Positions 1 through 59,637 of a stretch of DNA of 64,000 nt are shown here, in pieces. This DNA is from an archaeon (GTDB lineage Archaea > Nanobdellota > Nanobdellia > SCGC-AAA011-G17 > GW2011-AR17), in NCBI GenBank assembly GCA_043814545.1, contig JBDRJY010000018.1, positions 18,046 to 82,045 on the forward strand, written 5' to 3'. The notes below the pieces were generated by a model that saw nothing but the letters and a program-made list of their open reading frames with translations, was not told the origin of the DNA and ran no database searches. The position numbers and the translations under genes were made by a program. Position 1 is the first letter of the stretch. Every line of letters starts with the position of its first letter.

Positions 1-837
1 AATTCTTTAGAAGCTGAAGTTTTTGTATCAGGCGAACCATGTTGGGGCGCTTGCGATTTAGCAATTAACGATGCTAAAGAACTTAAGGTGGACGCAATTA
101 TAATTTTCGGCCACGCTCCGTTTATTAAAACAGACATACCAATCATTTACGCGGAAACGCCTTACCTGAAAGACATCCCTAACGATTTACTAATTAAATT
201 GAAAGAAAAACTACAACCTTACAACAAAATTGGCTTAGCTGCATCAATCCAACACGTTCACCAATTACAAAATTTACAATTAAACAAACCAACTTTGATA
301 GCACCACAGTCAGGAAGAAACATATGCGAAGGTCAAGTTTTAGGCTGCGACTGTTCTGGAACAAAACAAATTCAAAGAGAAGTTGATGTTATACTAGTAA
401 TAGGAACAAGGTTTCATGCATTAGGTGTAGCATTAAACACAAGTAATCCAGTTATACTTTTAGATTTATACAATGAAGAAATTTTAAACATGGAAGAAGA
501 TAAAAACAAAATGTTACAAAAGCGTTACGCGCAAATTGAAAAAGCTAAAGAAGCAAAAAAGTTTGCAATCTTAATTTCTCTAAAACCTGGACAAAAAGAA
601 ATGCAATTAGCTAAACAATTACAGATAAAAAACTCAATAACAATTTCAATAACAGAAATAACACCTGAAAAACTAATACAATTCTACGACATAGACTGTT
701 TCATTAGTTTAGCATGTCCAAGGTTAGTAGTAGAAGAGTCAGCGAGGTTCACAAAACCCCTACTTAACTACAAAGAATATTTGGTTTTAACAAATCAATT
801 AGAATGGAATGATATTTTAAAATCAGGTTTGTATTAA
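1..837 (+). CDS. dph2: Diphthamide biosynthesis 2-(3-amino-3-carboxypropyl)histidine synthase Dph2, 5'-partial; reading frame is open from position 1
   Basis: Frame 1 translation from nt 1 gives ...GEPCWGACD..., the Dph2-type Cys motif. It continues into the listed 88..837 ORF and contains a second Cys (GCDCSG) region. Confidence 0.6.
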   Translation, partial: NSLEAEVFVSGEPCWGACDLAINDAKELKVDAIIIFGHAPFIKTDIPIIYAETPYLKDIPNDLLIKLKEKLQPYNKIGLAASIQHVHQLQNLQLNKPTLIAPQSGRNICEGQVLGCDCSGTKQIQREVDVILVIGTRFHALGVALNTSNPVILLDLYNEEILNMEEDKNKMLQKRYAQIEKAKEAKKFAILISLKPGQKEMQLAKQLQIKNSITISITEITPEKLIQFYDIDCFISLACPRLVVEESARFTKPLLNYKEYLVLTNQLEWNDILKSGLY

Positions 838-3799: not shown

Positions 3800-3818
3800 T
3801 TTATTTTCGCATATTAAA

Positions 3819-3893
3819 TGGGATCGCCCGGATTTGAACCGGGGTCGTCGGGTCCCAAACCCGAAAGGATGGACCAAGCTACCCTACGATCCC
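3819..3893 (-). tRNA. tRNA-Pro (anticodon UGG)
   Basis: Minus-strand GGGATCGTAGGGTAGCTTGGTCCATCCTTTCGGGTTTGGGACCCGACGACCCCGGTTCAAATCCGGGCGATCCCA. It has a 7-bp acceptor stem, anticodon loop TTTGGGA and T-loop GGTTCAAATCC. Confidence 0.85.
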
Positions 3894-3899
3894 ATTTGA

Positions 3900-4589
3900 T
3901 TATTTTTTCTTAGTAGCTTCAGGTTTTTTTGTTTCAGCTGCTGATGTTGCAGTAGCTTTCTCAGTTTTAGCTGCAACCTGTGCAGCTTTATCATCAGCAG
4001 CTTTTTTAGAAGCTGCGATTTGATCAAGTTCTCCTTGGAACCCTTTACGAATATTATCAAGTTGTTCTTTAAGTTTAGCACGCTTTTCATCGCTAACTTC
4101 AATTTTACCCGAATTGATAACTTTATCAAACTCGCCAGCATCAATCTTAGGATTAATCTTTAAAGCAACCAAACCTTCAACAAGGACACCCATTGCGTTA
4201 GCTGATCCAATAACAGTTTTAACTGCGCTTCGAAGGTTACGGATAAACAATGAAGTTTCCTTCATCTTAGCGATTTTGATAACATCTTCCATCGCCATGT
4301 TAGCAACTTTGTCAATATTAGGTATACCTGATCCTTTTTGCAGATTAAGTTCTTTCTTAATTAACTGCGAAACTGGTGGCGTACCAACTTCAATTTCAAA
4401 CTCTTTCGTTTCAGTATCTACAGTAACTTTGACAGGAACTTTCATTCCTTTAAATATTTCAGTTTTTTTATTGATGGCTGCAACAACTTCACTAATGTTA
4501 ACTTTTAATGGACCTAAGGCTGGTCCTAATGGTGGCGCTGCAGTTGCTTTTCCGCCTTCAACAAGAGATTCAATTTTTTCTTTAGCCAT
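3900..4589 (-). CDS. rpl11: Ribosomal protein L11 (uL11) with a roughly 65-aa Lys/Ala-rich C-terminal extension
   Basis: N-terminal PPLGPALGPLKVNISEVV L11 signature. Residues after about 165 (KEQLDNIRKGFQGELDQIAASKKAADDKAAQVAAKTEKATATSAAETKKPEATKKK) are low-complexity basic tail. Confidence 0.9.
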   Translation of the reverse strand: MAKEKIESLVEGGKATAAPPLGPALGPLKVNISEVVAAINKKTEIFKGMKVPVKVTVDTETKEFEIEVGTPPVSQLIKKELNLQKGSGIPNIDKVANMAMEDVIKIAKMKETSLFIRNLRSAVKTVIGSANAMGVLVEGLVALKINPKIDAGEFDKVINSGKIEVSDEKRAKLKEQLDNIRKGFQGELDQIAASKKAADDKAAQVAAKTEKATATSAAETKKPEATKKK

Positions 4590-4685
4590 TTTTATCTACT
4601 GAACTTATATACTCTCATTGAGAAATTTATCCCCTTTATAAGCTTTTCTGATTTAGTTTTGGCTTAGCCTTTATTATAGGAAACC

Positions 4686-4693
4686 TTTATAAA
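4686..4693 (+). promoter_or_regulatory. TATA box (aaaccTTTATAAAg) for the J-domain gene, 23 nt upstream of the ATG (leaderless)
   Basis: Matches the recurrent AAACC-TTTATAAA element seen before many genes in this window. Confidence 0.5.
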
Positions 4694-4716
4694 GAAAAAG
4701 TAGAAGTTTTTGAGTT

Positions 4717-5013
4717 ATGAAAGATTATTATAGGGTGTTAGGTATAAGTGATTCTGCTAGTGAGGTAGATATTAAGAAAGCTCATCGTCGGCAGGCTCGT
4801 TATTGGCATCCTGACTTGAACAATAGTCCTGAAGCTACGGAAAGGTTTAAGGAAGTTCAAGAAGCTTATGAAAATTTGTCTTCAAATAGTTCTCAAACTG
4901 ATATTATATTTTCTGATATTATTTTTGGCGAAGGGATTGGTTATTTTTTCTCGTTGAAAGATATTACTGCTAAAGTCAGAGGCCAAGTAATTTATGCGAG
5001 GGGTGGGTTTTGA
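4717..5013 (+). CDS. J-domain (DnaJ-like) protein, small
   Basis: [32 protein letters not shown] with an HPD tripeptide; 98 aa, no Zn-finger or C-terminal domains. Confidence 0.65.
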
Positions 5014-5744
5014 ACAAAGATCAGTTAGCTTATTTATTTGGAACTTTGGTTAATCTTCATTCCGAAATAGTTGTATATTCTATAACAATAGGGGTTGTTA
5101 GTTTGGAATATATATTTTTTGACAAAATTGATTTAGATTTTTATAAAACAGCTTTACCTTTAGGAACTTTAACTTTTGGTTTAATTATGTCAAGAGAATT
5201 TGGTAAAGATAAATTGAAAGTTAAGAAGATGAAGAAAATGTTAAAAGCTAACCATGAAAAATATCCGAGACAAGATTATGAAAGAATTGTTTTTGAATAT
5301 CGTGACGGTTTAGAAATGTTGCTTTCGGAAACAGCCAAGAAAGGGAAATATGAATGGGGGACGTGTTATAAATATTCAAGTTCAGAAAATGATGCAGTAA
5401 TAACAGATATTTTATCTCTTGAAGAATCAAAGGAAAAAAAGTTTGTAACTGATGTAAGTGAATCTTCGGTTCAGATAGAATATAATTTTGCAAAAACATT
5501 TGGTTATAACGGCCATCATCATTATCATCCTAAAACAATTAGTAATGGATTAGATGCAGCTAATTTTGTAATTAATCAAAGGGATAGGTCTATTGCAGAC
5601 ATATGTCTTTTAACATTTATGCTTAACGGCAGACCAGAAATAATTGGATATAATTTGTTAAATACTTATATTCCTACTGATGCATCAAAAACAGTTTTGA
5701 CTAAAGCTACTTGGAAAGACATTTACAGGTATTTGGGAAAATAA
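5010..5744 (+). CDS. Membrane-anchored protein with a JAB/MPN-like metal-binding motif (candidate deubiquitinase-like peptidase)
   Basis: TTG start overlapping the J-domain stop (TTGA). Two N-terminal hydrophobic helices. C-terminal [26 protein letters not shown] resembles the JAMM core GW(Y)HSHPxxxxxxSxxD but with shorter spacing (HxHx4Sx3D); Glu residues lie 45-60 aa upstream. Confidence 0.35.
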
Positions 5745-5849
5745 TTCTAAATGTTTAGTTAGTTTATTTGTTTTCGTCGGAAATCTTTCTAAATTTTATG
5801 GCCAAACTTTATTAATATTTTTTTCTTAATCTTTTCCGAGGTGGTTTTA

Positions 5850-6185
5850 ATGGAAAAACATTATTTGTTGTTGAACACGGCTGCACATAAGGCAGCAACA
5901 GGAAGTTTAGGTTTGTTAAAAGAATTAGATCAAGATAGGGTTTTTGGTTCTTTTGAAGAACTGTTAAATTATACAGTTAATGAAAAGTATAAAGGTGATG
6001 AAGCAGACATTGCTAGCGAGGTATTATCATACCTTGACCAACAAGATGGGAAAAACGTCATCTTAGAAATTAACGTGAAAGGTAATAAAGCAAATTTAGA
6101 TGAAAAAGTTAAATCTTATTTTATTGAAAAAGAAGAGGATTATGTATTAGACGTAGAATTAAGTTTACGTTCAAGGGTGGGATGA
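5850..6185 (+). CDS. Small protein with a C-terminal ubiquitin-like (beta-grasp-like) segment ending ...YVLDVELSLRSRVG
   Basis: SD GAGGTGG 5 nt upstream of the ATG at 5850. The C-terminal about 45 aa (VILEINVKGNKANL...YVLDVELSLRSRVG*) parallels the ubiquitin TLHLVLRLRGG tail with a single terminal Gly. The stop lies 1 nt before the next gene. Confidence 0.35.
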   Translation: MEKHYLLLNTAAHKAATGSLGLLKELDQDRVFGSFEELLNYTVNEKYKGDEADIASEVLSYLDQQDGKNVILEINVKGNKANLDEKVKSYFIEKEEDYVLDVELSLRSRVG

Positions 6186-6186
6186 A

Positions 6187-7011
6187 ATGGTTTCACCCTT
6201 TTTTGATTATTTTAATTCTTCTTCTTTTTTAGTGATAGACAATATAATTTATACTATTAAAGAAAATGTTAAATGTGACAAATATTTAAACTTACATAAT
6301 TGCTGTTATGGTTTACAAAAAACGGAACCAGTTTCAATATTTTTAGATTTTAATGAAAAAGATAATAAAACTACTTTGGTAGAATTTGTCTTATGTAGTC
6401 TTATTGGAAAAAATATATCCTCATCGATTCAACCAAAACTAAATTTGTTTAATGAAGACATTTTTGTTTATTTTGGAAAAATGCATTTACTTTTTTCTTT
6501 AGATTCAAATCAGTATACAGTTGGTGCAAAAATTAAAACTTCTTTAAAAGATTATGATTTTTTGTTACAAAAACAGATTTATGTTAACCATCCTTTGATA
6601 AAAAATGTTTTAGATAAAGGAGAATATTATGATCAAGAAAAAGATTTAGGTGTCCATGTCCATAATAACATAGTTTATGTTACCAAACAATCAAAACCTT
6701 TTATGATACAAAATCAATATCATTTTCCTTCCGCAAAAATTGGTGTGCCTTTATATTTATCAGACGAAATTTCTTGGCAAGATCCTATAGTTATTAATGA
6801 TTATACACATCCGGCATTACCATCTAAGAACAAACCTTACCAAAAAATATGTTGTGGTAACTTCAACTTTAACCAAATTCGTGAACGTTATGATTTACCT
6901 TCACAGATTAAATCTGTGCTTTTTCATGCGGAACAATTTTTAACGAAAGGTGTTTGGGATGATGCAGCTGGCGCTTGGCATAGGTTATCAACAATGGAGA
7001 GACCACAATGA
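6187..7011 (+). CDS. Protein with a C-terminal UBC/E2-like domain
   Basis: C-terminal HFPSAKIGVPLYL...YTHPALPSKNKPYQKICCGNFNF...W...SQIKSVLFHAEQFL follows the UBC core pattern FPxxPP...HPN(x)8-10 C...W...SKVLLSIxSLL. Its stop overlaps the E1 ATG (ATGA). Confidence 0.5.
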   Translation: MVSPFFDYFNSSSFLVIDNIIYTIKENVKCDKYLNLHNCCYGLQKTEPVSIFLDFNEKDNKTTLVEFVLCSLIGKNISSSIQPKLNLFNEDIFVYFGKMHLLFSLDSNQYTVGAKIKTSLKDYDFLLQKQIYVNHPLIKNVLDKGEYYDQEKDLGVHVHNNIVYVTKQSKPFMIQNQYHFPSAKIGVPLYLSDEISWQDPIVINDYTHPALPSKNKPYQKICCGNFNFNQIRERYDLPSQIKSVLFHAEQFLTKGVWDDAAGAWHRLSTMERPQ

Positions 7012-8216
7012 ATTATTCAAGACAACGTATGTTTGACCAAAGCCAACTTTTGAATGGTCATGTAACAGTTATTGGTCAGACAAAAATCTCGGAATACCTT
7101 TGTGCTTACTTAGCTGCAATGGGTATAGGTAAGATTAGTTTGATTGGAGAGAAAAATGAAGAAACCAAACCGTTGCAAGAAACAATCTTCGAATTGAATC
7201 CAGATGTATCAGTTAAGATTTTACAACTTCCTTTTCATCGAGCTTTTGTTAATACTGATTCGATTTTAGTTGACACAACAAACTCTTTAGAATCAAAGTT
7301 TAAACTTAAGCAATTTGAAAAATATTTGAGTGCATCTTCTTCAACGGACTCTTTTATTATAAGTCCAGACTTCTTTCACCCCTTAGATTCTCCTCAAGGA
7401 GATTATACTAGTGCTATGGCGGCTGCGATTTTAGTTGACGAGATTCGTAAACAGATTTTTGAAGAGGATATAAATTTAAATTTTTTAACTTATTCGTTAG
7501 GCTCAAATCCAAGATTTTTTTCTAAATTAGAATATGATAATAATGTGGTTTTAAATTCAAAACGTGTTTTGGTAGTTGGAGCAGGGGGTATAGGCACTTA
7601 TGCATGTTTAAATTTAATTCCTTTAGGCGCAAAAATAGATTTATTTGACGGCGATAAAATCGAAGATCATAATTTGAACCGTCAGATTTTTTATTATAAT
7701 GCAATAGGAGAAAACAAAGCTCAGGTTTTGGCTAAGCGCCTTAAACATTTGACACGTTGGTCTCAGTTAAAACCGAATAAAAATTATTTAGACAAAAAAA
7801 CTCTTTACAATCTTCCTGACTACGACTGTATTTTAAGTTGCGTTGATAATTGGGAAACAAGAAAAATATTAAGTAAGTACGCTCTAATAACTGAAACATC
7901 ATTGATTAACGCTTCTGTTACAGCTTACACAGCTTCGTTAGAAATATATGTTCCTGGTTTGACTTCTTGTTTAGAATGTAGGCACGATTTTGACAGGTTA
8001 ATGCAGACAGAAACGGCACCAGCTTCTTGTTCAAACATTGCTAATTCTAATATTGTTTCAACGAACGCGTTTATTGGTGCAATGATGGCTGCTGAGTTTA
8101 AAGCATTAAGTTCTCCACAAATATATCCTCAGATTTACAACTACGAATTTCTTTACGATTCACAATCCAACCATAAATTTGCACAGATCCCAATTGAAGC
8201 GAGGTGTGTACATTGA
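7008..8216 (+). CDS. E1-like (ThiF/MoeB/Uba family) enzyme with tandem adenylation-like domains: degenerate N-terminal, canonical C-terminal
   Basis: Domain 2 has VLVVGAGGIGTYACLNLIPLGAKIDLFDGDKIEDHNLNRQIFY, DCILSCVDNWETRKIL and CxxC (SCLECRHDF). Domain 1 starts with the ThiF-like YSRQ...IGKISLIGE but lacks GxGxxG (VIGQTKISE). Confidence 0.75.
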   Translation: MNYSRQRMFDQSQLLNGHVTVIGQTKISEYLCAYLAAMGIGKISLIGEKNEETKPLQETIFELNPDVSVKILQLPFHRAFVNTDSILVDTTNSLESKFKLKQFEKYLSASSSTDSFIISPDFFHPLDSPQGDYTSAMAAAILVDEIRKQIFEEDINLNFLTYSLGSNPRFFSKLEYDNNVVLNSKRVLVVGAGGIGTYACLNLIPLGAKIDLFDGDKIEDHNLNRQIFYYNAIGENKAQVLAKRLKHLTRWSQLKPNKNYLDKKTLYNLPDYDCILSCVDNWETRKILSKYALITETSLINASVTAYTASLEIYVPGLTSCLECRHDFDRLMQTETAPASCSNIANSNIVSTNAFIGAMMAAEFKALSSPQIYPQIYNYEFLYDSQSNHKFAQIPIEARCVH

Positions 8217-8632
8217 GCACCTTAGATTTATTGTTAACAAATGTATATTGTCCGGTTCAATATGATAAATTAGAAGAAATAAGCTTAGACAAACGTTTAT
8301 CTTACAAAAAATCGTTACAAGAATTTAAGCGATACGCAACAACCGAATATTCTAATGATTTAGCAAACATTCTTTTAGGAGAATTTGTTGGCAGAAAATT
8401 GGATTGGAACGATAGGTTAAAATTTTTTTACATGCGATATAATTCTTTAACTTCTTTGACAGAATCTCAAGAAGTTTCGTATTTAATTAATATATTAAAC
8501 AAAAATAAATATGTAAACAAAAAATACAAAAAACAACTCAAACAAGTAAAAAAGAAATTAAAACCAGGATTAATTAAAAGAATTTTGTTTAATCTTCTTC
8601 ATCCTCGCTATGATCATCTTCCCGACGGATAA
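8204..8632 (+). CDS. hypothetical protein (last gene of the E1/E2 cassette)
   Basis: GTG start overlapping the E1 stop. Basic C-terminus. The 3' end overlaps the convergent spt5 by about 44 nt, so its exact extent is uncertain. Confidence 0.35.
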   Translation: MCTLSTLDLLLTNVYCPVQYDKLEEISLDKRLSYKKSLQEFKRYATTEYSNDLANILLGEFVGRKLDWNDRLKFFYMRYNSLTSLTESQEVSYLINILNKNKYVNKKYKKQLKQVKKKLKPGLIKRILFNLLHPRYDHLPDG

Positions 8633-9062
8633 CTTTAACTGCATCCATTTTCAATGTAACTGGAATAGGTACAGCAGCTTCAAGCAACTCAACAATAACT
8701 TCTTCTTTTTGTTCATCTAATCTTGAAATTTTAGCTTTTTCATGTTTGAACGGACCAGAGATGATTTCAACAATGTCATTTTTCTGCATATTGATAGGCG
8801 TTTTAATTTGTTCTAGCATACCTTCAATTTCTTCGTACTCAACGGGTTTAGGTAACAAGCCTTTAGCATAAGGAACACCTTGAAAAGATTCTTCAGCATC
8901 TTCTTTACTAATTGCTTCAAGAAAAATGTAACTTCGCATACCATGTGGTCTAATCACACTGTATACACCAAGCTTTTTCTTTTGTACGTTAGACGTAACA
9001 AAGTCTACAACTTGATCTTCCCTGTTTGCTGTTGTTCTTAACACAAAAATTTTATTTTCCAT
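8589..9062 (-). CDS. spt5: Transcription elongation factor Spt5 (NusG homolog)
   Basis: NGN domain (IFVLRTTANREDQVVDFV) plus KOW (NDIVEIISGPFKHEKAKISRL); acidic C-terminus. Confidence 0.85.
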   Translation of the reverse strand: MENKIFVLRTTANREDQVVDFVTSNVQKKKLGVYSVIRPHGMRSYIFLEAISKEDAEESFQGVPYAKGLLPKPVEYEEIEGMLEQIKTPINMQKNDIVEIISGPFKHEKAKISRLDEQKEEVIVELLEAAVPIPVTLKMDAVKVIRREDDHSEDEED

Positions 9063-9064
9063 TT

Positions 9065-9247
9065 TTACGCGGTGATTATTTGAACTGCTATTGTAATGCT
9101 AAACCCAATTAAACCAATAATAGCCATGCCAAGCCCAGTAATCTTAACTATGGTTTTGAGCTCTTCCATGTTGGGTTTTTTGGTTATCTTGAGTACCCTT
9201 ATGCTTTCTTTTATAAAGCTTTTGATTTTAATAAAAATAGGACTCAT
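9065..9247 (-). CDS. secE: Preprotein translocase subunit SecE (Sec61 gamma)
   Basis: 60 aa with a single C-terminal TM helix; conserved position directly upstream of spt5. Confidence 0.7.
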   Translation of the reverse strand: MSPIFIKIKSFIKESIRVLKITKKPNMEELKTIVKITGLGMAIIGLIGFSITIAVQIITA

Positions 9248-59486: not shown

Positions 59487-59561
59487 GGATCCGTAGCATA
59501 GTTTGGATGATGCGTTGGCCTTCTAAGCCAAAGATCCAGGGTTCAAATCCCTGCGGATCCA
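59487..59561 (+). tRNA. tRNA-Arg (anticodon UCU)
   Basis: GGATCCG acceptor pairs with CGGATCC; anticodon loop CTTCTAA; T-loop GGTTCAAATCC. Confidence 0.85.
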
Positions 59562-59564
59562 TAT

Positions 59565-59637
59565 GCTGGCGTGCCCAAGCGGTTAAGGGGATCGGCTGCA
59601 ACCCGGTTATTCCCAGGTTCGAGTCCTGGCGCCAGCT
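59565..59637 (+). tRNA. tRNA-Cys (anticodon GCA)
   Basis: GCTGGCG acceptor pairs with CGCCAGC plus U73 discriminator; anticodon loop CTGCAAC; T-loop GGTTCGAGTCC. Confidence 0.85.

Follow-up and report, generated by a model that had tools for sequence, protein, structure and literature searches.

A candidate ubiquitination-like gene cassette with a compact two-domain E1 in an archaeon

The locus described here raises the question of whether an archaeon with a small genome encodes a complete ubiquitin-like conjugation system and, if so, which of its genes belong to that system. We analysed a 64,000-nt stretch of DNA (GCA_043814545.1, contig JBDRJY010000018.1, positions 18,046 to 82,045, forward strand), called the window below. 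An earlier note on this DNA had proposed a cassette of six genes encoding a J-domain protein, a JAMM-like protein, a ubiquitin-like modifier (Ubl), an E2-like protein, a tandem-domain E1 and a protein without assignment. Our analysis indicates that the three genes from 5850 to 8216 quite probably form a three-part ubiquitination-like conjugation system consisting of the Ubl, the E1 and the E2-like protein. The upstream pair, which encodes the J-domain protein and a hydrophobic protein with an HxH motif, is separate, and its link to the cassette is uncertain.

Layout of the locus

All six plus-strand open reading frames were present where the earlier note had placed them, and every peptide string quoted from them was found (Table 1). 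The description of the genes as tightly packed is correct for most of the junctions. The stop of the J-domain gene overlaps the start of the HxH gene by 4 nt (5010–5013), the Ubl and E2-like genes are 1 nt apart (6185 versus 6187), the E2-like and E1 genes overlap by 4 nt (7008–7011), and the E1 and last genes overlap by 13 nt (8204–8216). However, a gap of 105 nt (5745–5849) that includes an AT-rich, TATA-like stretch separates the HxH gene from the Ubl gene. Scans for sigma-70 promoters and terminators gave scores at background. The Ubl start at 5850 is the start common to its orthologues. A hairpin at the Ubl/E2-like junction was discarded as a candidate element; it is kept in the closest relative only and not further. 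The cassette lies within the SecE-Spt5-L11 gene cluster, where its neighbours are L11, prefoldin, SepF, Spt5, SecE and FtsZ. The names used in the present annotation are 'hypothetical protein' and 'ThiF family adenylyltransferase'.

Table 1. Coordinates of the genes, domains and candidate active-site residues (positions in the window)
Feature	Position	Strand	Remarks
Small J-domain protein, 98 aa	4717..5013	+	HPD at residue 31; Pfam DnaJ
HxH protein, 244 aa, possible metal-dependent hydrolase	5010..5744	+	N-terminal hydrophobic segment; invariant E115-W-G-T, H171-x-H173, D192
Ubiquitin-like modifier (Ubl), 111 aa	5850..6185	+	Ends ...LRSRVG-stop; Gly111 codon 6180-6182
E2-like protein, 274 aa	6187..7011	+	N-terminal domain ~residues 1-130; UBC-like C-terminal domain ~residues 130-270
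E2-like protein, active-site residues	His208-Pro209 6808-6813; candidate catalytic Cys222 6850-6852	+	
Single-chain E1, 402 aa	7008..8216	+	Inactive adenylation-like domain plus active adenylation domain
E1, inactive adenylation-like domain	Residues 1-~152, 7008-7463	+	Followed by linker helix with DEIRK motif
E1, active adenylation domain	Residues ~176-396	+	Candidate catalytic Cys341 at 8028-8030
Lysine-rich protein, 142 aa	8204..8632	+	Overlaps end of E1 gene; lineage-specific; no family match

Features of the E1, the E2-like protein and the Ubl

The E1 had been read as a degenerate N-terminal ThiF-like domain followed by a canonical adenylation domain, and profile matches supported both parts. 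Residues 176–396 matched Pfam ThiF with an E-value of 7.7e-43 (146.8 bits against a cut-off of 28.1). The N-terminal domain alone matched ThiF in register at 8e-4 and the C-terminal domain of its own chain at 2e-4, and the family profile of this domain reached ThiF at 4e-12 over about 130 residues, MoeB at 7e-10, the inactive domain of Uba1 at 4e-4 and NAE1 at 1e-3. The nucleotide motifs of the N-terminal domain are lost, with GQTKIS in place of GxGxxG and no D..NLNRQ. We examined conservation in a genome scan that used one genome per species and yielded 64 loci with a two-domain E1. Residues G191, G193, G196, N222, R225, Q226, K237, D280 and C341 of the active domain were conserved in all 64 loci and D216 in 63 of them; R5 of the N-terminal YSRQ motif was present in 57/64. 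The crossover loop holds a Zn-type CxxC (C324), with 16 residues between C324 and the invariant Cys341. Another 61 residues follow Cys341, and in most members Cys/His occur close to the C-terminal end. The E1 has neither an inserted catalytic-Cys domain in the crossover loop nor a C-terminal ubiquitin-fold domain, and a Pfam search found no rhodanese domain in it. When PDB was searched with the family profile, SAE2 (4.6e-30) and ThiF ranked highest for the active domain. The top single-sequence PDB match had raised an MccB/RiPP reading, which we dropped on two grounds: a folded protein of the beta-grasp type serves as substrate, and both SAE2 and ThiF outrank MccB in the profile search.

For the E2-like protein, the earlier claim of a UBC/E2 core stood as regards predicted fold and His-Pro...Cys arrangement, but not as regards known families. 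In the predicted model, the C-terminal domain has the helix, four-strand meander, long loop and crossover helix of the UBC fold. The candidate catalytic Cys222 is placed in the loop after the meander, with the conserved His 14 residues ahead of it; both His208 and Cys222 are invariant in 76 sequences (39 + 37). Alignment with UBE2D2 by hhalign put HP onto HPN and C222 onto Cys85, with an E-value of only 0.07. No invariant His or Glu lies C-terminal to Cys222 in the family alignment. Neither UQ_con nor Prok-E2_A-E matched any of 39 members or of 5 bacterial members, and the protein and its family profile found nothing meaningful in Pfam, NCBIfam, PADLOC or PDB sequences. A word-indexed search for relatives gave only 2, and it was an exhaustive representative search that revealed the family.

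The predicted model of the small protein at 5850–6185 has a beta-grasp fold and the chain ends ...RVG-stop, which supports the earlier view of it as Ubl-like. To judge by the model, the protein is as close to MoaD and SAMP1 as it is to ubiquitin, or nearly so; the final residues, which have low pLDDT, form a flexible C-terminal tail ending in Gly. Sequence and family profile gave no meaningful match in Pfam, NCBIfam, PADLOC or PDB sequences. Homologues end in VG or GG followed by a tail of 0–10 residues; in the window, Gly111 is the last residue and there is no such tail. In the first locus set, all six tailed Ubls adjoin a canonical JAMM gene, and the four tail-less Ubls have no canonical JAMM gene next to them. 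In sister loci, the JAMM proteins have the motif E...HSHx7SxxD, and their E-values against Pfam Prok-JAB run from 1.5e-8 to 5e-5; a JAMM relative at one locus (L009) has a degenerate metal site.

Spread of the gene set, flanking genes and alternative readings

A check of gene order found the same arrangement in two diverged relatives, L001 (84% identity to the window for the E2-like protein and 89% for the E1) and L003 (52% for the E1), and the Ubl/E2-like/E1 trio recurred in 9 of 10 further loci reached via E1 relatives. Because the order is kept in these relatives and the trio recurs elsewhere, the arrangement is not due to chance. In the genome scan, the E2-like gene was also present in 48/64 loci, and within 5 kb of the two-domain E1 there was a Ubl homologue in 46/64 and a JAMM protein in 39/64. 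Many members have the order Ubl-E2-JAMM-E1; no canonical JAMM gene occurs in the window. A search for related loci seeded with the single E1 sequence found none in genomes, and alignments of the E2-like protein contained no stretch with enough conservation to serve as a query. Scanning viral contigs with the E1 profile gave only generic single-domain ThiF matches and thus no sign of a virus-borne cassette. The gene set is a member of a widespread family that is not covered by the annotation libraries searched (Pfam, NCBIfam and PADLOC). The family occurs in DPANN archaea and in several bacterial phyla, the bacterial calls resting on MAG contigs in which binning errors are possible.

The flanking genes are a different matter. 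The J-domain assignment was confirmed by a Pfam DnaJ match of 5.9e-20 (71.6 bits against a curated cut-off of 27.8) and by the HPD motif; this gene adjoins the cassette in the window clade only (the window, L001 and L003). The 142-aa protein, previously listed as an unknown, indeed has no family in Pfam, NCBIfam or PADLOC, and its orthologues were found only in L001 and L003. In L004 and L008 its place is taken by a 136-aa Lrp/AsnC-like protein, and hhalign showed no relation between the two. The HxH protein has its Kyte-Doolittle maximum (1.68) at residues 19–38 and gave no signal in Pfam, NCBIfam, PADLOC or PDB searches. A ferritin match of its profile (E-value 0.005) was judged to be chance because it rests on a shared EWGT string.

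Could all six genes nonetheless be one unit, in which the J-domain protein would recruit an Hsp70 and the HxH protein, as a divergent JAMM/MPN+ isopeptidase anchored in the membrane, would release the Ubl from its conjugates? The invariant residues of the HxH protein in a 20-member alignment make up the residue set of a JAMM site, its HxH and xxD repeatedly fall on HSH and SxxD when hhalign compares it with true JAMM proteins, and its gene stays beside the cassette in the window, L001, L003 and L010, in a lineage whose cassette has no canonical JAMM gene. By contrast, the motif departs from E...HxHx7SxxD: its spacing is 10–16 where a JAMM site has 7, and the Ser position may be N, S, H or G. 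The protein has no Pfam JAB or Prok-JAB match, whereas the sister-locus JAMM proteins do, and the E-values of 0.08–0.45 in profile comparisons with the latter equal those of negative controls. In addition, 16 of the 17 metagenome loci with an HxH gene have no cassette, the exception being a window-clade locus, and one of the 16 lies among bacterial-type isoprenoid genes; the 105-nt gap with its TATA-like stretch divides the two gene groups, and the 64-kb window contains no DnaK gene. We regard the single six-gene unit as unlikely. Judged by its conserved residues, the HxH protein is a possible metal-dependent hydrolase, and it probably stands outside the core of the cassette.

Two further readings concern the core genes. 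The Ubl and E1 could be a sulfur-carrier or SAMP-like pair. The Ubl would then be turned into a thiocarboxylate for the thiolation of tRNA or cofactors, or be conjugated without an E2 ('sampylation'), and the 274-aa protein would do some work other than that of an E2. The closest sequence relatives of the active domain do include ThiF, MoeB and Uba4, the Ubl model is approximately as similar to MoaD and SAMP1 as to ubiquitin, and archaeal SAMP conjugation is reported to work without an E2 (PMC2948915, PMC4895103). However, the E1 differs from ThiF, MoeB and UbaA in being a pseudo-dimer within one chain, and it has no rhodanese domain. MoaE, ThiG, ThiH, NcsA and rhodanese partners are all absent from the neighbourhoods. 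In three-quarters of the genome loci (48/64), the E1 is linked to a UBC-fold protein whose His...Cys is invariant, and the family often has JAMM peptidases and tailed precursors. The locus is thus not a plain MoeB/ThiF beside MoaD/ThiS genes, the finding that the earlier note had named as evidence for a sulfur-carrier system, and we consider this reading highly improbable. We give as little credence, or slightly less, to a reading in which the E1 modifies targets directly and the 274-aa protein, rather than being a transfer enzyme, acts as a Cys/His hydrolase or as an inactive adaptor of UBC/RWD-like type. Inactive UBC-like domains typically lack the Cys (Iyer 2006), whereas here His208 and Cys222 are both invariant and in register with the HPN...Cys of canonical E2s.

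Comparison with known systems and proposed mechanism

The earlier note had likened the locus to Bil, Bub, CBASS or Caldiarchaeum-like systems. The combination of Ubl, E2-like protein and E1 agrees with this; the window has no canonical JAMM gene, and the Bil types of E2 and E1 and the traits of Bub are absent. Bil operons of Types I and II encode BilA (Ubl), BilB (E2), BilC (JAMM) and BilD (E1) (Chambers et al., PMC10557695). As in Bil, the family has Ubl, E2, JAMM and E1 as separate genes, often in this order, a single-chain E1 with inactive N-terminal and active C-terminal adenylation domains, the crossover-loop CxxC and C-terminal Cys/His noted above, a Ubl that often carries a short tail past the conserved Gly, and no encoded E3. 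Unlike Bil, its E1 has the IAD-AAD arrangement without the helical CYS domain of about 80 residues, and the top 60 PDB matches of the E1 profile do not include BilD. We compared the E2-like protein with the prokaryotic E2 families 6a–6e as described in Iyer 2006. Its His precedes the Cys (HP...C) rather than following it as in 6d, there is no CEHH (6c/Type II), and it has an extra N-terminal domain and no sequence match to solved BilB. The window copy further differs from Bil by having neither JAMM gene nor Ubl tail. In Bub (6E/DUF6527), the E1 is a homodimer without a catalytic Cys and the E2 uses Ser and oxyester chemistry (Ye et al., PMC11601596). By contrast, Cys222 and Cys341 are invariant here, the E1 is two-domain, and there are no gene fusions and no DUF6527 protease in Pfam searches.

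The cassette enzymes have features in common with eukaryotic ones. The inactive-plus-active pairing is that of SAE1/SAE2 and NAE1/UBA3, with SAE2 as best PDB relative of the active domain and with an N-terminal profile that reaches Uba1 and NAE1. As in the minimal E1 UBA5, where the catalytic Cys is within a short crossover loop (PMC11601596), the candidate catalytic Cys of the window E1 lies in a short crossover loop. Unlike eukaryotic E1s, it is one 402-aa chain without CYS/SCCH, FCCH or ubiquitin-fold domain, and it belongs to a small-genome archaeon. Archaeal SAMP/UbaA/HvJAMM1 systems differ in having no E2 and a single-domain E1. Caldiarchaeum-type systems, as outlined in PMC5654768, comprise E1, E2 and a small RING E3; in contrast to these and to Asgard systems, the E2-like protein here has no match in Pfam, not even to UQ_con, and the cassette proteins scanned have none to a RING family.

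From the conserved residues and the known behaviour of E1s and E2s, we infer the following mechanism. The 111-aa beta-grasp protein would be made already mature, with Gly111 free at the C-terminus. Within the E1, the C-terminal adenylation domain would bind ATP and adenylate this Gly. The degenerate N-terminal domain would take the place that the partner subunit has in dimers of ThiF or MoeB, and the conserved Arg5 from its YSRQ motif would probably reach into the active site. The Ubl would then be held as a thioester on Cys341 in the crossover loop, move to Cys222 of the UBC-like domain and from there pass onto target lysines. Since no E3 is encoded, targets would probably be picked by the N-terminal domain of the E2-like protein. 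In related cassettes with a tailed Ubl, the JAMM peptidase would trim the tail and probably also reverse conjugation; in the window lineage, the Ubl has no tail and the cassette has no canonical JAMM gene.

We tentatively put forward a broader reading, which is somewhat less likely than not. These loci would represent a previously undescribed lineage of complete ubiquitination-like systems that is scattered widely over DPANN archaea and several bacterial phyla. They would pair a classical-type His-Pro...Cys E2 site with an E1 that uses a crossover-loop Cys and would be the smallest single-chain E1 of the inactive-plus-active type so far known. In the window lineage, the system may have become fixed in the SecE-Spt5-L11 cluster, shed its JAMM gene and the tail of its Ubl, gained the J-domain protein and the putative membrane metallohydrolase, and come to act, in an organism whose genome is very small, in housekeeping protein quality control or regulation rather than in defence.

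Before the Bil work, the inactive-plus-active E1 layout was reportedly considered a eukaryotic hallmark. This family has that layout in a minimal chain of 400 aa, beside an E2-like protein that keeps a His-before-Cys site. Because the cassette is fixed among core genes in the window lineage, a non-defence role is testable, and because the proteins are small, biochemical reconstitution should be feasible. Complete Ubl-E1-E2 cascades outside eukaryotes, here in an archaeon with a small genome, bear on the origin of the eukaryotic ubiquitin machinery and on the role of protein tagging in prokaryotes.

Gene order and setting of the cassette

The genes for a ubiquitin-like protein (Ubl), an E2-like protein and a tandem-domain E1 form a cassette within a run of six co-oriented ORFs. 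The earlier note had described the six as tightly packed, and the overlaps and gaps agree with this except for a 105-nt gap preceding the Ubl gene. The window is AT-rich (~32% G+C) and carries archaeal genes (L11, L37ae, prefoldin, SepF, Spt5, SecE, FtsZ and IF5A). The NCBI entries for identical proteins, from an archaeal MAG, read 'hypothetical protein' or, in the case of the E1, 'ThiF family adenylyltransferase'.

Features of the window and of related loci (L-numbers), with their coordinates
Feature	Locus	Coordinates	Strand
J-domain gene	window	4717-5013	+
HxH gene	window	5010-5744	+
Ubl gene	window	5850-6185	+
E2-like gene	window	6187-7011	+
E1 gene	window	7008-8216	+
Last gene	window	8204-8632	+
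Cassette region in SecE-Spt5-L11 cluster	window	3900-9247	
Hairpin	window	6173-6200	
tRNA-Pro(TGG), tRNA-Arg(TCT), tRNA-Cys(GCA) genes	window	3818-3894, 59487-59637	
HxH tandem array	L002	148-2538	
HxH tandem array	L014	1156-2645	
JAMM relative	L009	8182-8823	
Gene directly after E1	L004	8277-8687	
Gene directly after E1	L008	8253-8669	
E1 with several E2-like genes	L085	1784-3103	
E1 with several E2-like genes	L101	5001-6296	
Six-gene operon	L120	4389-9999	
Six-gene operon	L122	4479-10324	

Conservation of gene order in related genomes was borne out by two relatives, L001 and L003, in which the interval from L11 to Spt5 is laid out as in the window. The cassette's position in the SecE-Spt5-L11 cluster is kept even where the relative's E1 is only 52% identical. 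In all three genomes this otherwise conserved archaeal cluster surrounds a cassette of opposite orientation.

A hairpin with an 11-bp stem followed by a T-run (dG -14.4, z -2.5) covers the Ubl stop and the E2-like start, and might lower E2/E1 expression relative to Ubl. L001 has the identical hairpin, L003 a weak one and L009 none, so its conservation is not established. Among the tRNA genes of the window, those for Arg and Cys are just 3 nt apart.

The E1, E2-like and Ubl proteins

Pfam ThiF matches E1 residues 176-396 (7.7e-43). In this C-terminal domain G191, G193, G196, N222, R225, Q226, K237 and D280 are present in all 64 genome loci and D216 in 63 of them; Cys341, on a short crossover loop 17 residues past CxxC, is likewise found in 64 of 64. 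The N-terminal 155 residues alone give a weak in-register ThiF match (8e-4; 4e-5 for the L001 orthologue) and are similar to the C-terminal domain of the same chain (2e-4). An N-terminal-domain profile of 15 family members matched E. coli ThiF at 4e-12 over ~130 residues, MoeB at 7e-10, the inactive domain of Uba1 at 4e-4 and NAE1 at 1e-3. The nucleotide motifs are gone from this domain, with GQTKIS replacing GxGxxG and D..NLNRQ missing, and YSRQ is retained. In MoeB/ThiF dimers the Arg of the YSRQ-type motif extends into the partner's active site. The N-terminal ThiF matches, the lost motifs and the conserved C-terminal residues therefore confirm the tandem inactive-plus-active E1 that had been proposed. 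The E1 lacks both an inserted Cys domain and a ubiquitin-fold domain.

The E2-like protein had no match in annotation libraries or among PDB sequences, and a word-indexed search returned only itself and one 84% relative. An exhaustive search gave 56 cluster representatives, with conservation over residues ~120-270. G155, Y206, H208, P209, C222 and L267 are invariant in an alignment of 39 sequences, and H208 and C222 occur in all 37 further genome-locus sequences. AF2 modelled the protein with high confidence (pLDDT 90), and the Foldseek matches of the model are mostly E2s, none better than E 0.068. Aligned with four canonical E2s, the family's C-terminal domain reached an E of only 0.07 (unrelated controls, 0.26-0.48); this weak alignment pairs HP with HPN, Cys222 with the catalytic Cys and the next helix with helix 2. 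The E2-dominated structural matches, invariant H208/C222 and HP/Cys register uphold the UBC/E2-type core suggested earlier. We read the protein as a divergent enzyme of the UBC fold, in which His precedes Cys as in the classical site and to which an extra N-terminal domain is joined. Loci L085 and L101 have one E1 with two or three adjoining E2-like genes, which suggests that the target-recognition component has diversified.

The AF2 model of the Ubl (pLDDT 88.5) has disordered last few residues and predicts that a beta-grasp with extra helices makes up the entire protein. The likeness to ubiquitin extends beyond the C-terminal 45 residues noted earlier. The Ubls of the window, L001, L003 and L009 stop at the conserved Gly.

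Neighbouring genes

The product of the HxH gene had been taken as JAB-like, with a JAMM (metallopeptidase) site of shortened spacing. E115-W-G-T, H171-x-H173 and D192 are conserved among its relatives (L001, L002, L003 and 17 metagenome loci), and the Ser and Asp aligned earlier lie inside a five-residue insertion missing from other members. The true pattern is E...HxHx(10-16)[N/S/H/G]xxD, and the spacing is therefore longer than in JAMM. No match was found to sequence models or a PDB profile. With hhalign, comparison with cassette JAMM domains gave E values of 0.08-0.45, equal to unrelated controls, yet the motifs line up. Among the 17 metagenome loci, Ubl and E2-like genes adjoin only in L010, a window-clade fragment; in L018 the HxH gene has IspD/F/E/H and UppS-like genes around it, as judged by eye from translations. 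We conclude that HxH is a separate widespread family, possibly of metallohydrolases, and that it came to adjoin the cassette in this lineage only. In some metagenome contigs two or three diverged HxH paralogues stand in tandem; L001 has two copies and the window one.

The J-domain protein is real, as first noted. An all-against-all comparison of loci tied its gene to the cassette in the window clade only, and no DnaK gene occurs within the 64 kb window. The last gene encodes a lysine-rich, clade-specific protein of 142 aa, whose window, L001 and L003 versions all end in ...DG; it has no relatives outside the clade among the loci compared. Elsewhere (L004, L008, L073, L075 and L076) a gene of 136-148 aa directly follows E1 and by eye resembles a helix-turn-helix regulator of the Lrp/AsnC type; in L005 a nearby gene gives weak Pfam HTH_24/AsnC matches. 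Overall, the cassette claimed in the earlier note is real and its core was read correctly; its JAB-like component is unsupported. In the strict sense the cassette comprises three genes, or perhaps four.

Distribution, known systems and proposed mechanism

An E1 search found ~26 full-length two-domain relatives (26-89% identity), the named ones being Woesearchaeota and Nanoarchaeota MAGs. Ten further loci were compared (L001, L003, L004-L009, L027 and L028), across which Ubl, E2-like and E1 are homologous; no Ubl was detected in L027. L004-L009, L027 and L028 have unrelated contexts, several adjoining toxin-antitoxin, HEPN or 23S-rRNA-IVP genes. Six loci encode Pfam Prok-JAB matches (1.5e-8 to 5e-5) with canonical E...HSHx7SxxD. 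In an alignment of Ubl homologues drawn from genes neighbouring E1 relatives, the Ubls of these six run 2-5 residues past the conserved Gly (VG-NGTA, VG-CR, IG-YKTA, VG-ANE, VG-WQQTE and VG-GR). The JAMM relative of L009 has WRNRRNH for WHSHG, and its metal site is therefore degenerate; it adjoins a Ubl ending exactly at Gly.

An E1-profile scan with one genome per species gave 80 loci, 64 with a two-domain E1. An E2-like gene accompanies 48 of these 64, a Ubl homologue found by iterated profile 46, and a JAMM gene within 5 kb 39. By title, the archaea are Woese-, Pace-, Nano- and Aenigmatarchaeota. Because bacterial titles also occur (Desulfobacterales, Syntrophobacterales, Acidobacteriota, Thermoflexales, Acetothermia and Latescibacterota, although individual contigs may be mis-binned), the family is not DPANN-specific. 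In bacteria the Ubl sequence closes with ...QEGG or ...GG, followed by 0-10 further residues. Pfam, NCBIfam and PADLOC lack the bacterial members as well.

The family resembles Bil in gene complement and two-domain E1 (PMC10557695), but Bil's defining features are lacking: the cassette family is without a CYS domain, the His of its E2 comes ahead of the Cys where 6d E2s have it after, and the CEHH pattern of 6c E2s is missing. Sequence comparison did not link the E2-like protein to solved BilB, and the best 60 matches of the E1 profile do not include BilD; that profile places the active domain about equally near the SUMO E1 SAE2 and ThiF (both ~5e-30). The family is unlike Bub, which has a homodimeric E1 and oxyester chemistry (PMC11601596). 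In the DPANN and archaeal literature, as partially covered, we found no description of such a cassette.

The analysis shows the folds, as modelled, the conservation of catalytic residues and the linkage of the genes; each chemical step is inferred. The best-supported model is a thioester relay from E1 to E2. The N-terminal domain of the E2-like protein would select targets, and the JAMM proteins of relatives may process the Ubl, by analogy with BilC and BubC (PMC10557695, PMC11601596).

The related operon of Desulfobacterales MAGs (L120 and L122) begins with the genes for E1, a Ubl ending ...QEGG plus 1-2 residues and the E2-like protein; next come those for a protein of 150-190 aa and an AAA+ ATPase resembling ClpX (Pfam AAA_2, 6.9e-20), and JAMM is last. 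This operon hints that tagging is tied to unfolding.
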